The notes beneath the pieces are model-generated. The model was not told the DNA's origin and did not search any database. It worked only from the letters and a program-made list of their open reading frames with translations. From Escherichia phage 308Ecol101PP, in the sequence record OR062945.1: 64,000 bases of DNA. One strand, 5' to 3'. Shown here one piece after another: positions 7,100-55,018 of the stretch (position 1 is its first letter; every line of letters begins with the position of its first letter). The position numbers were made by a program, and so were the translations under genes.

Positions 7100-7128
7100 T
7101 GTACAACGATAGGAAGACGTGTTATTAT
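7100..7128 (+). promoter_or_regulatory. candidate early promoter (TGTACA ... TATTAT) inside a 10-bp inverted repeat
   Basis: 17-nt spacing; arms GATAGGAAGA (7108-7117) and TCTTCCTATC (7129-7138) flank the -10. Confidence 0.45.
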
Positions 7129-7159
7129 CTTCCTATCGTCTTAAAATGAGGAAAATATC

Positions 7160-7399
7160 ATGGAACAAGAATTAGACGTTATTACATCGAAAAAACGTCT
7201 TGAAGTCGTAGTGAATGGCTCAACTATTAAGTTTGTATATGACACTTTAACTGATGCTATTACCGTTAGTTGTGGTGGAAAGGCTTTTAGTCTAGATTCT
7301 ACTGAAAACAAATACCCGTTCTATAAAGGTATCTTTGATATGGGTGTTGATATCAGTGTTCGTCAAGCAAACTATTTACATTATCTTATCACGGAATAA
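7160..7399 (+). CDS. hypothetical protein
   Basis: 79-aa ORF with GAGGAAAATATC upstream. Confidence 0.45.
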   Translation: MEQELDVITSKKRLEVVVNGSTIKFVYDTLTDAITVSCGGKAFSLDSTENKYPFYKGIFDMGVDISVRQANYLHYLITE

Positions 7400-7428
7400 T
7401 GCACAAACTCTTGAGAGCAGAGTATAAT
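7399..7428 (+). promoter_or_regulatory. candidate promoter (ATGCAC ... TATAAT) with 6-bp inverted repeat; element recurs at 52681
   Basis: TATAAT at 7423-7428 flanked by GAGAGC/GCTCTC; a near-identical 33-nt element lies at 52684-52716. Confidence 0.45.
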
Positions 7429-7467
7429 GCTCTCTCATTGGATAATAAAATAACCGAGGAAAATAAT

Positions 7468-7800
7468 ATGTCTACTAAAATCAAAAACGTAGTTAATTCT
7501 TTCGCTTTCGATAAAGTTGTTGCTCTTCTGGAATCCGGCAATATTGTTACTCCTCAAGTCCTTGACGCGTGGGAATTCCGTCTTTATGAAATCATGCAAA
7601 AACACGACCAGAAAATTGGACGTAATTCTATTCGTGAAATTCTAGTACAATATATTCTTTCTGAATTTGACGTTGCTGCATTTGGTGTTGAATCTAAAGC
7701 TTATCAGAAACATGAAATCTCTGAAAAGACTATCCGTCGTATGAAAAATCAACGTAAGAAAAAATTCGTTGACCTGAAAATTGTTAAGGCGGTAAAATGA
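7468..7800 (+). CDS. hypothetical protein
   Basis: Track ORF 7399..7800 starts inside the promoter element; ATG 7468 has GAGGAAAATAAT upstream. Confidence 0.45.
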   Translation: MSTKIKNVVNSFAFDKVVALLESGNIVTPQVLDAWEFRLYEIMQKHDQKIGRNSIREILVQYILSEFDVAAFGVESKAYQKHEISEKTIRRMKNQRKKKFVDLKIVKAVK

Positions 7801-8362: not shown

Positions 8363-8920
8363 ATGACTGAACAAAAACCTAAAAATAACTATGTGAATAA
8401 TAAAGAGCTTCTCGCCGCTATAATCGAGTGGAAAAAGGAGCTCTTAAATAATAAAGACCCAAACAAAATTATTCGTCAGAATGATACCATCGGTTTAGCA
8501 ATTATGCTTATCGCCGAAGGCCTGTCCAAACGTTTCAACTTTTCAGGATATACCCAGTCTTGGAAGCAGGAGATGATTGCAGATGGGATTGAAGCCTCTA
8601 TTAAGGGACTTCATAATTTCGACGAAACTAAGTACAATAACCCACATGCATACATAACTCGAGCTTGTTTTAATGCTTTTGTCCAACGTATCAAAAAAGA
8701 ACGTAAGGAAGTTGCAAAGAAATATAGTTACTTCGTTCATAATGTCTACGACAGTCATGACGATGATATGGTAGCGTTGGTAGATGAAACGTTTATTCAA
8801 GACATCTACGATAAAATGACGCATTATGAAGAATCCGCTTATAAAGCTCCTGGGGCTGAAAAGAAGGAAGTTGTTAGCGATTCGCCTAGTTTGGATTTTT
8901 TATATGAGGATGACAATTGA
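8363..8920 (+). CDS. 55: late-transcription sigma factor gp55
   Basis: 185 aa, same length as T4 gp55; matches T4 gp55 from memory. Confidence 0.9.
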
Positions 8921-29376: not shown

Positions 29377-29405
29377 GTTTACTTCTCCAGTAGTTGTGTT
29401 ATTAT
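29377..29405 (+). promoter_or_regulatory. early promoter (GTTTAC, 17 nt, TATTAT) inside a 12-bp inverted repeat
   Basis: Arms CTCCAGTAGTTG (29385-29396) and CAACTACTGGAG (29414-29425); the downstream arm contains the Shine-Dalgarno sequence of the next gene. Confidence 0.5.
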
Positions 29406-29431
29406 AGACCTATCAACTACTGGAGAACAAA

Positions 29432-30211: not shown

Positions 30212-30580
30212 ATGAAAAAATTAATCGCTTTAGCAATGGTATTTGGATTAACCGGATGTGGTGCCCATGGCTTTATCCCTAATAACGTTGGCCAATTGAT
30301 TTACAATCCGAATGTTAAACAATATGAACAACCTAAAGTTGAAGTGGAAGACCCGGTTACTGTAGGTAATCGAATGATTCAAGCTGATGCCCATGCTCAA
30401 CGTTATCGTGACTCTGATACTGTAGCTGTGTCAAAGGAACAGCGCGTTAAAGAACATTGCTTACAGGCTACTGAAATCGCATTCATTCGCTATGTTGAAA
30501 CAACCGGTAAAGAGCCTACCCAGAAACAAATCGCGAATAACTACGTCCAGTGTATTGAACGTTTAAACAAATTTAATTAA
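30212..30580 (+). CDS. putative lipoprotein
   Basis: Signal peptide with lipobox LTGC (MKKLIALAMVFGLTGC). Confidence 0.55.
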   Translation: MKKLIALAMVFGLTGCGAHGFIPNNVGQLIYNPNVKQYEQPKVEVEDPVTVGNRMIQADAHAQRYRDSDTVAVSKEQRVKEHCLQATEIAFIRYVETTGKEPTQKQIANNYVQCIERLNKFN

Positions 30581-41111: not shown

Positions 41112-41141
41112 GTTTACAACCAAGGACGGTTGGAGTATAAT
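41112..41141 (+). promoter_or_regulatory. early promoter (GTTTAC, 18 nt, TATAAT)
   Basis: Hexamers read directly. Confidence 0.5.
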
Positions 41142-41668: not shown

Positions 41669-41698
41669 TTGTACATCCAAGGATGGATGGAGTATAGT
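41669..41698 (+). promoter_or_regulatory. candidate early promoter (TTGTAC ... TATAGT)
   Basis: 18-nt spacing. Confidence 0.4.
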
Positions 41699-41726
41699 GA
41701 ATTCAATTTAAACAAAGAGAGAAATT

Positions 41727-42690: not shown

Positions 42691-42719
42691 GTTTACTTCT
42701 CCTCTGGATTTGGTATTAT
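42691..42719 (+). promoter_or_regulatory. early promoter (GTTTAC, 17 nt, TATTAT) inside a 10-bp inverted repeat
   Basis: Arms TCTCCTCTGG (42698-42707) and CCAGAGGAGA (42731-42740); the downstream arm contains the Shine-Dalgarno sequence. Confidence 0.5.
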
Positions 42720-42745
42720 ATCCATATCAACCAGAGGAGAATAAT

Positions 42746-52477: not shown

Positions 52478-52678
52478 ATGGCTAAGCTTTTTAAAGATGT
52501 TGAAATTGGTGAAAAATTTGTTCTGAATAATGGTCAGCAGCTTATTCGTGTAGCTTCTATCGCCGGACAAACTCATAACTGTATCGCCACAACGTGTTGG
52601 ACTCGATTCTTTATTGAAGATGACACTGAATGTTTAACTATTGAAGAGCTTTTTGAACGTTCTGATATAGCCGAATAA
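52478..52678 (+). CDS. hypothetical protein
   Basis: 66-aa ORF with GAGGAACACAAA upstream. Confidence 0.45.
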   Translation: MAKLFKDVEIGEKFVLNNGQQLIRVASIAGQTHNCIATTCWTRFFIEDDTECLTIEELFERSDIAE

Positions 52679-52680
52679 AA

Positions 52681-52716
52681 TTGTACAAACTCTTGAGAGC
52701 AGAGTATAATGCTCTC
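52681..52716 (+). promoter_or_regulatory. candidate promoter (TTGTAC, 18 nt, TATAAT) with GAGAGC/GCTCTC inverted repeat; copy of the 7399 element
   Basis: 33 nt near-identical to 7402-7434. Confidence 0.45.
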
Positions 52717-52754
52717 ATGGATTACAAAAACATTAATCAATTGAGGAAATTAGC

Positions 52755-53201
52755 ATGTCCAAATATTTAACTCGTAAAGACCTTCTGGCAGTTGGCGGTG
52801 AAGTTGTTGCAGTAGTTCGTAATGGCGAATACGGTTCTGAAGTTTCTAAAGAGTTTCGTTCTCGTGAAGGTTTTTACTTCTTTGTTAAAGGTTCATCTGA
52901 CTGGCGTCAAGTTGCAGCACGATTCTTTGTAGGACGTCAACGTTCTAAACAAGGGTTGGATGCAATTCTTTCTCACATTCGTCAAGGCCGTTCGCAACTA
53001 GCCCGTACTATGGGCACTAACAATATTGAATATGATGTAATCTTTGTTGCAGCTAAGAACATGAAACCCCTGACTACTGGTTATGGTAAAGGACAATTGG
53101 CTCTGGCATTCACTCGCAATCATACATCAGAATATCAAACACTCACTGAAATGAACCGTCTTCTGGCAGATAATTTCAAATTCGTTCTGCAGAGTTACTA
53201 A
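52755..53201 (+). CDS. ndd: nucleoid disruption protein Ndd
   Basis: 148 aa with [13 protein letters not shown]...[14 protein letters not shown]...[13 protein letters not shown]...[12 protein letters not shown]; matches T4 Ndd from memory. Confidence 0.75.
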
Positions 53202-54989: not shown

Positions 54990-55018
54990 GTTTACATGTG
55001 CTTCAAACATGATATTAT
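54990..55018 (+). promoter_or_regulatory. early promoter (GTTTAC, 17 nt, TATTAT) upstream of motA
   Basis: Followed by the TAGACCTATCAA motif. Confidence 0.5.

Follow-up and report, generated by a model that had tools for sequence, protein, structure and literature searches.

Two intergenic sites of a T4-type coliphage, about 45 kb apart in the 64,000 nucleotides analysed here (the window), carry the same sequence, which raises the question of what kind of element this is and how it came to stand ahead of both downstream genes. The window belongs to the genus Mosigvirus (RB69/JS09-like), the closest records being pEK20, JQD51, JS09 and ST0 at approximately 99% identity, and its early-gene strand is the + strand. 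The first-pass annotation had described the two sites as a promoter-like element and had suggested recent duplication, a promoter cassette or a recombination hotspot.

Sequence and genomic setting of the repeat

The repeat, ACAAACTCTTGAGAGCAGAGTATAATGCTCTC, is exact over 32 nt and is preceded by C at position 7402 in copy 1 and by T at position 52684 in copy 2 (Table 1). The initial description of two 33-mers with one mismatch was therefore accurate, as was that of a TATAAT flanked by GAGAGC(A) and (T)GCTCTC in both. No match to the 32-nt repeat arose by chance in 100 dinucleotide-preserving shuffles, even with 3 mismatches allowed. A third copy was not found in the window by a scan permitting up to 10 mismatches, nor by a covariance model, which scored the true copies at 58-64 bits and the next best site at 15 bits. 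Downstream of the 32-nt core a weaker likeness continues for some 12-15 nt (TCATTGGATAA versus ATGGATTAC) and then ends.

Both copies lie between an upstream stop codon and a downstream Shine-Dalgarno (SD) sequence and ATG (7397-7399 to 7468 and 52676-52678 to 52755). Copy 1 is 1 nt past the stop codon of a 79-aa ORF (7160-7399) and 33 nt ahead of the ATG of a homologue of T4 gp55.2 (7468-7800), which is followed by a gp55.1 homologue, a homologue of RB69 ORF072c and then gene 55 (8363-8920). Copy 2 follows the ndd.1 homologue (52478-52678), 3 nt past its stop codon, and lies 38 nt ahead of the ATG of ndd, the nucleoid disruption gene, which is an early gene in T4. The statement that both copies precede small unknown genes thus holds for copy 1, the function of the gp55.2 homologue being unknown, but not for copy 2, since ndd encodes the nucleoid disruption protein.

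Table 1. Coordinates of the two elements and of the neighbouring cassette, with the stem arms found across the family.
Feature	Position	Strand	Description	Basis
Repeat, copy 1	7403..7434	+	32 nt; spacer, -10 box and both stem arms	exact match, mismatch scan, covariance model
Repeat, copy 2	52685..52716	+	32 nt	exact match, mismatch scan, covariance model
-35 hexamer, copy 1	7400..7405	+	TGCACA	T4-type consensus TTTACW (PMC4122927)
-10 hexamer, copy 1	7423..7428	+	TATAAT, spacer 17 nt, no TGn extension	
-35 hexamer, copy 2	52682..52687	+	TGTACA	
-10 hexamer, copy 2	52705..52710	+	TATAAT, spacer 17 nt	
Stem-loop, copy 1	7413..7434	+	GAGAGCA (7413-7419) / TGCTCTC (7428-7434), loop GAGTATAA, -11.4 kcal/mol as RNA	
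Stem-loop, copy 2	52694..52717	+	8 bp, TGAGAGCA / TGCTCTCA, loop GAGTATAA, MFE -13.9 kcal/mol, z = -3.4	
Leader, copy 1	7435..7470	+	predicted start ~7435-7437, short AU-rich leader, SD GAGG 7456-7459, ATG 7468-7470	start from -10 spacing
Leader, copy 2, and ndd	52718..53201	+	SD GAGGAA 52743-52748, ndd ATG 52755, stop 53201	
Neighbouring cassette	7100..7399	+	promoter TGTACA-N17-TATTAT (7100-7128) in 11-bp inverted repeat (7106-7116 / 7129-7139), ORF 7160-7399	
Arms, window and most Mosigvirus copies			5' GAGAGCA, 3' TGCTCTC	
Arms, Mosigvirus pseT copy			5' AGGAGCA, 3' TGCTCCT	
Arms, RB69 55.x			5' CGAGAGA, 3' TCTCTCG	
Arms, Dhakavirus-like pseT copy			5' GGGAGCA, 3' TGCTCCC or TGCTCCT	
Arms, PSD2002 and EC.W15-4			5' GGGACCA, 3' TGGTCCT	
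Arms, MX01			5' GGGAGCG, 3' TGCTCCT	
Arms, TH41			5' GGGAGCA, 3' TGTTCCC	

Promoter anatomy

Each copy is predicted to be a T4-type early promoter, with use by the polymerase and the start site as part of the prediction. Both match the sigma-70 consensus at 10 of 12 hexamer positions with a spacer of 17 nt; the -10 TATAAT is perfect, whereas the -35 hexamers agree with TTGACA at 4 of 6 positions only. Against the early-promoter consensus of T4 and PST, TTTACW-N17-TAYWAT (Comeau et al. 2014, PMC4122927), TGTACA fits at 5 of 6 positions, TGCACA at 4 of 6, and TATAAT agrees with TAYWAT. The -35 hexamer is TTTACA in the e.6, pseT and JM17 copies. The order of stop codon, T[TG]TACA, N17, TAYWAT, leader, SD and ATG is common to the other early-strand sites of the window and recurs at 35 sites in the complete genome of pEK20, which was assembled from four pieces and used for the family and promoter surveys. 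Some GenBank records carry an annotated promoter at the site of the element. With the phage's own early-promoter architecture, a position at the head of genes and membership of a discrete multi-copy family, the sequence supports the proposal of a promoter cassette.

An extended -10 (TGn) is absent from both copies, GAG preceding the TATAAT; several other promoters of the window have TGn. The A+T content of the 20 nt upstream, which form the end of a coding region, is approximately 65-70% as counted at the two copies without a genome background, and neither a clear UP element nor a clear AT-rich block was seen upstream of the -35 at either copy. Two other classes of T4 promoter were ruled out by reading the sequence. 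The MotA box of middle promoters is TGCTTtA, centred at -30 and 11-13 bp from the -10; the -30 region of the element is ACAAACTCT and shows no MotA box at that spacing, the nearest match of the TGC type being TGCACAA, which is present in copy 1 only and ends 16 nt from the -10. The motif of late promoters, TATAAATA, is absent.

The early promoters of T4 (Pe) have the form UP/-35/TGn/-10 (Hinton 2010, PMC2988021). The element resembles them in its host sigma-70 -35 and -10 boxes, its 17-nt spacer and its place at the head of prereplicative genes, but differs in lacking TGn and a clear UP element, and T4 itself lacks the element at both the 55.3/55.2 and the ndd.1/ndd junctions.

Copies in related phages and age of the family

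The search for copies that the first-pass annotation had proposed yielded many further ones in related phages and none more in the window. pEK20 has four members, located before ndd, before the gp55.2 homologue, between frd.3 and e.6 and, as a diverged copy, in the pseT region. Exact-word copies were present at 2-3 per record in approximately 160 GenBank phage records, all RB69/JS09-like. In RB69 the ndd and e.6 copies have the identical core, and the copy at 55.x is a variant. Relatives with altered stems sit at 55.x and pseT in Dhakavirus; others were found in a Gaprivervirus and in one Tequatrovirus. A pattern scan of IMG/VR gave only 14 loci, which were useful for Dhakavirus-like variants and too few for statistics.

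At the 24 non-hexamer positions of pEK20 promoters with 17-nt spacers, the three close members show 1 difference and the pseT copy 5-6, compared with 13-18 for typical pairs of promoters. So few differences identify a true subfamily, beyond what two good matches to a consensus would give. Recent duplication, as first suggested, is contradicted by RB69, in which ndd and e.6 each have their copy with an unchanged core, and by the recurrence of the family throughout the Mosigvirus records. Since stem variants sit at the corresponding 55.x and pseT loci in Dhakavirus, the family predates these genera. The 55.x copy of RB69 differs from the window at clustered positions, a pattern that compensatory change would explain as well as gene conversion would.

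The stem-loop around the -10

In copy 1 the -10 occupies the loop and the first base of the 3' arm. The hairpin is predicted in every variant of the family, with folding energies from -10.6 to -13.9 kcal/mol. Among 11 distinct variants, 98.7% of stem cells pair, compared with 39-53% when the partner is slid; changes on both sides have occurred in four of the seven stem pairs, and the covariation score was reached by none of 500 shuffles. By contrast with the changing arms (Table 1), none of the 11 departs from GAGTATAAT in the loop or from ACAAACTCT upstream, as expected if the -10 and spacer constitute a promoter and pairing is all that is required of the arms. Compensatory changes across genera, around an invariant -10 in the loop, indicate that the stem is kept by selection.

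On the sense strand, the six stem cells that depart from Watson-Crick pairing are G.T without exception, and A.C does not occur. This pattern is no more than suggestive of a sense-strand structure, since sense and antisense folding did not differ at 35 promoters (p = 0.77) and this strand test, failing to discriminate, does not separate a role in RNA from one in DNA. Two smaller features of the sequence were observed. After the 3' arm, copy 1 has an extra TC at 7433-7436 (GCTCTCTCATTGG) relative to JM17 (GCTCTCATTGG), which looks like slippage in a CT repeat and removes what could have been an eighth base pair, as in copy 2. Within the spacer (7408-7422 and 52690-52704) CTCT could instead pair with AGAG over 4 bp, with loop TGAGAGC; this pairing excludes the main hairpin, and both of its arms are invariant.

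An intrinsic (Rho-independent) terminator was ruled out and a terminator role in general is doubtful, because no T-run follows the hairpin (the tails are TCATTGGA and ATGGATTA) and the terminator scan called neither copy. A search with the covariance models of Rfam 15 found nothing up to E = 1 in the surroundings of either copy. A hairpin that sequesters the ribosome binding site (RBS) was likewise ruled out for the element, the SD lying 20-30 nt past the 3' arm.

Inverted repeats at other promoters of the phage

Perfect inverted repeats of at least 8 bp bracket the -10 at 17% of pEK20 promoters compared with 1.2% of random positions, and spacer stems of at least 4 bp occur at 63% of promoters and 38% of controls, a modest enrichment. 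Stronger folding than in controls was seen for promoter windows on either strand (p = 0.0035 for sense, p = 2e-5 for antisense). In one group of promoters the 3' arm begins directly past the -10, as in the 32-nt element. At 7100-7139, 300 nt upstream of copy 1, a second early-promoter-like site, which has TGn, carries its -10 in the loop of an 11-bp perfect inverted repeat, ACGATAGGAAG/CTTCCTATCGT; with a folding energy of -16.5 kcal/mol (z = -4.0) it shows this geometry more strongly than copy 1 does.

In a different group, with four sites in pEK20, a TTCTCC... sequence just past the -35 pairs with the downstream Shine-Dalgarno. Two early promoters of the window, at ~29383-29427 and ~42697-42741, have such a 5' arm (TTCTCCAGTAGTTG and TTCTCCTCTGG, respectively), starting from the end of the -35 TTTACT and pairing with the SD (CAACTACTGGAGAA and CCAGAGGAGAA); the RBS would be sequestered in read-through transcripts and free in transcripts from the internal promoter. 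In T4, hairpins across an internal promoter are known to sequester the RBS in read-through transcripts of genes e, soc, 49 and I-TevI (Uzan & Miller 2010, PMC3014915), and the two window sites are true examples of this type, located at early promoters. The 32-nt element shares with the T4 genes a 5' arm upstream of the internal start site, so that only read-through transcripts would fold; it differs in that its 3' arm ends before the start site and the SD lies outside, and in that the T4 precedents are late promoters.

A further subtype has a small spacer hairpin with an (A/T)GGA loop and is represented in the window at 41113-41141, 41671-41699 and 54991-55018, and in pEK20 at 30231, 31415, 45852, 97923, 119041, 120037 and 162509. 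Its arms vary by copy (AACCA/TGGTT, CACCA/TGGTG, CCACA/TGTGG, ACACA/TGTGT). The subtype looks like the PeSL subclass, described below, in which the stem-loop lies between the -35 box and that of the -10.

Gene-content differences at the element

Mosigvirus JM17 lacks exactly the promoter at 7100 and the ORF at 7160-7399, that is, the cassette immediately upstream of copy 1. The JM17 junction falls within the two -35 hexamers (TGTACAAC... and TGCACAAAC...), and one element with TTTACA is left. In the IMG/VR locus L017 an extra cassette has been inserted between the stop codon of frd.3 and the copy at e.6. It comprises a promoter that belongs to a different subtype, a leader and an ORF of 85 aa, and T[GT][CT]ACAAAC stands at both of its junctions. 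These are two independent promoter-to-promoter cassette indels with their endpoints in -35 hexamers.

Differences between genera were also observed. At 55.3/55.2 the element is absent from T4 because the gap there is only 13 nt, and at ndd.1/ndd T4 has an unrelated hairpin in place of the element and no clear promoter. This T4 hairpin (AF158101; L021 2262-2283, minus strand), GGCCG-tgtgtattcatg-CGGCC, has a -10-like TATTCA in its loop and may be a degenerate or alternative cassette. Around the pseT copy, Tequatroviruses share the upstream gene only and Dhakaviruses share the element and the downstream gene only. In Tequatrovirus EC.W15-4 an element of the PSD2002 type occupies a junction of the dexA-cef region at which a different promoter subtype stands in the window. 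Alignments between genera break at the element, although breaks at intergenic regions are expected anyway. Within Mosigvirus the ndd locus is collinear across 152 records.

Among the Dhakavirus-like loci from IMG/VR, L009 has a 160-aa ORF immediately after the element, and L019 lacks this ORF cleanly. A promoter-mediated origin of this deletion was ruled out, the ORF having been excised exactly from ATG to ATG at a TATGA microhomology (TTATGA / GTATGA), with the result that the element would itself drive the gene that follows. In L010 the place of the 160-aa ORF is taken by a replacement ORF that has diverged strongly. In pEK20, positions 132303-133163 (L006 2403-3263) hold an annotated MobD-like homing endonuclease between genes 47 and 46, in a region that corresponds to the window.

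Comparison with PeSLs and proposed explanation

PeSLs (promoter-early stem-loops) were defined in phages RB49 and phi1 as composite elements between genes that combine a stem-loop with a strong early promoter of the sigma-70 type (Arbiol et al. 2010, PMC2839356). In these phages promoter activity, terminator activity of one stem-loop and the formation of mini-circles by recombination between neighbouring PeSLs have been demonstrated, and the stem-loop falls into five positional subclasses, one of which overlaps the -10 box (PMC2839356). The concept was later extended to T4/PST and KVP40/nt-1 and proposed for probably all T4-like phages (Comeau et al. 2014, PMC4122927). Neither PMC2839356 nor PMC4122927 mentions RB69-like phages, and a literature search linking PeSLs with RB69, Mosigvirus or Dhakavirus found no report.

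Several sequence features by which PeSLs are recognised were found in the element: a sigma-70-type promoter with the appropriate spacing, a stable stem-loop over the -10, placement between a stop codon and an SD/ATG, and multiple copies beside ORF indels or replacements that distinguish close relatives. It differs from described PeSLs in its stem, GAGAGCA/TGCTCTC rather than the GGGG/CCCC of RB49 or the AGNA/TCNT of PST, and in forming a tight four-copy subfamily in which the spacer is identical too, with no clear AT-rich block before the -35 and no T-run after the stem. Whereas the activities of the RB49 and phi1 PeSLs were demonstrated, promoter activity of the Mosigvirus element is a prediction from sequence. 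The element is best assigned to the known PeSL class and does not represent a new kind of system. The idea of a recombination hotspot tied to variable regions finds support, in the sense known for PeSLs, from the two cassette indels that abut copies of the element, its absence at 55.3/55.2 of T4 and the swap of subtypes. The link between copy sites and gene content, which had been proposed as a check, holds at the JM17 and L017 loci, while the ndd locus itself is collinear. With further copies found and a tie to variable regions seen, the outcome that was to refute the first-pass idea did not occur. The two copies of the window would be unworkable as a recombining pair, since recombination between them would delete about 45 kb, including replication genes.

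Lambdoid morons are promoter-gene-terminator units in which no flanking conserved repeat serves as an exchange site. Cassettes bounded by the Mosigvirus element are similarly self-contained for expression and add small accessory genes; the difference is that the conserved promoter itself is the junction.

The element is probably a PeSL-type cassette of early promoter and stem-loop, of the '-10-overlapping' subclass, that would be shuffled by recombination within promoter sequences. The repeat, its promoter-like layout, the discreteness of the family, the covarying stem and the indel endpoints at the -35 are observed; promoter activity, its timing, the role of the hairpin and the mechanism of recombination are inferred. 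Host sigma-70 RNA polymerase would read each copy as an early promoter, copy 1 heading the unit of the gp55.2 homologue, gp55.1 homologue, ORF072c-like gene and gene 55, and copy 2 heading ndd. Transcripts from the element would start just past the 3' arm and hence lack the hairpin, which would form only in read-through transcripts from upstream genes. There it would most likely act as an attenuator or as a protective 3' end insulating the downstream unit. The T[GT][TC]ACAAAC at the -35 would provide the short homology at which promoter-plus-ORF cassettes enter or leave, and the copies would be nearly identical because promoter recombination placed one promoter subfamily at several gene junctions.

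Alternative explanations

An unlikely alternative is that the inverted repeat acts in DNA, either as a cruciform or non-template hairpin that assists or gates opening of the -10, or as the target of a structure-specific phage protein, such as endonuclease VII or gp46/47, that initiates cassette recombination. The stem encloses the -10 and so cannot be in the promoter's own transcript, the excess folding of promoter windows is found on both strands, and the authors of the PeSL concept speculated that the stem-loop is a target of recombination proteins, one RB49 crossover having occurred in the loop (PMC2839356). By the established energetics of extrusion, however, a 7-bp stem with an 8-nt loop makes a poor cruciform, and an open complex melts only from about -11 to +3, leaving the 5' arm duplex. 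The restriction of all six non-Watson-Crick cells to G.T on the sense strand favours a wobble-tolerant structure of that strand, and the junctions of both the JM17 and L017 indels are at the -35, outside the stem. Even if the inverted repeat acts in DNA, the promoter assignment would remain valid. It is improbable that the element is instead an intercistronic RNA hairpin only, concerned with processing, stability or termination, whose TATAAT in the loop is no working promoter. Covariation of the stem, a -35 that is weak by the E. coli consensus and the different hairpin without a clear promoter at ndd.1/ndd of T4 would all suit such a hairpin; yet it would have no need of a TATAAT set at precisely 17 nt from a T[TG]TACA of the kind found in other promoters of the phage, nor of loop and upstream sequences that stay invariant in 11 of 11 variants while the stem changes. 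Its geometry is, moreover, that of the PeSL subclass for which promoter activity was demonstrated in RB49 and phi1.

The palindrome might also be regarded as an operator, at which a protein dimer would bind DNA and turn off these particular early promoters. Operators classically have the position of this inverted repeat, over the -10, and early-promoter shut-off in T4 is incompletely explained (PMC2988021). This reading is very improbable: the half-sites change in step, differently by phage and by locus and including G.T pairs, and unrelated arm sequences adopt the same geometry at other promoters, which is the signature of base pairing and not of one protein's recognition sequence. That the repeat is a functionless product of recent segmental duplication or an artefact of assembly is scarcely credible. 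The identity of the two copies at 32 of 32 positions would fit, but more than 150 independently sequenced genomes, RB69 among them, have these copies at these loci, the likeness ends within about 15 nt on each side, and the structure is kept by variants in other genera.

A further reading, also unlikely, would make the stem a selected recombination signal instead of an insulator at the level of transcripts, its hairpin or cruciform being recognised by a structure-specific enzyme of the phage, and the promoters of this subfamily quasi-site-specific 'attachment sites' at which small early genes are shuffled within T4-like genera and from one to another. If so, this would explain both the identical spacer at four loci and the non-orthologous junction in a Tequatrovirus.

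Implications for Mosigvirus and related phages

As a PeSL-type cassette, the element brings within the PeSL concept the coliphages of Mosigvirus (RB69/JS09-like) and Dhakavirus, groups widely isolated for use in therapy and biocontrol. Compared with the PeSL text consulted, what is added are the compensatory stem changes across genera and two natural indels with both endpoints in neighbouring -35 hexamers. For annotation, the element marks the likely early transcription starts of ndd, of the gp55.2 homologue and of two other units, and it flags junctions at which accessory genes are likely to differ between isolates.
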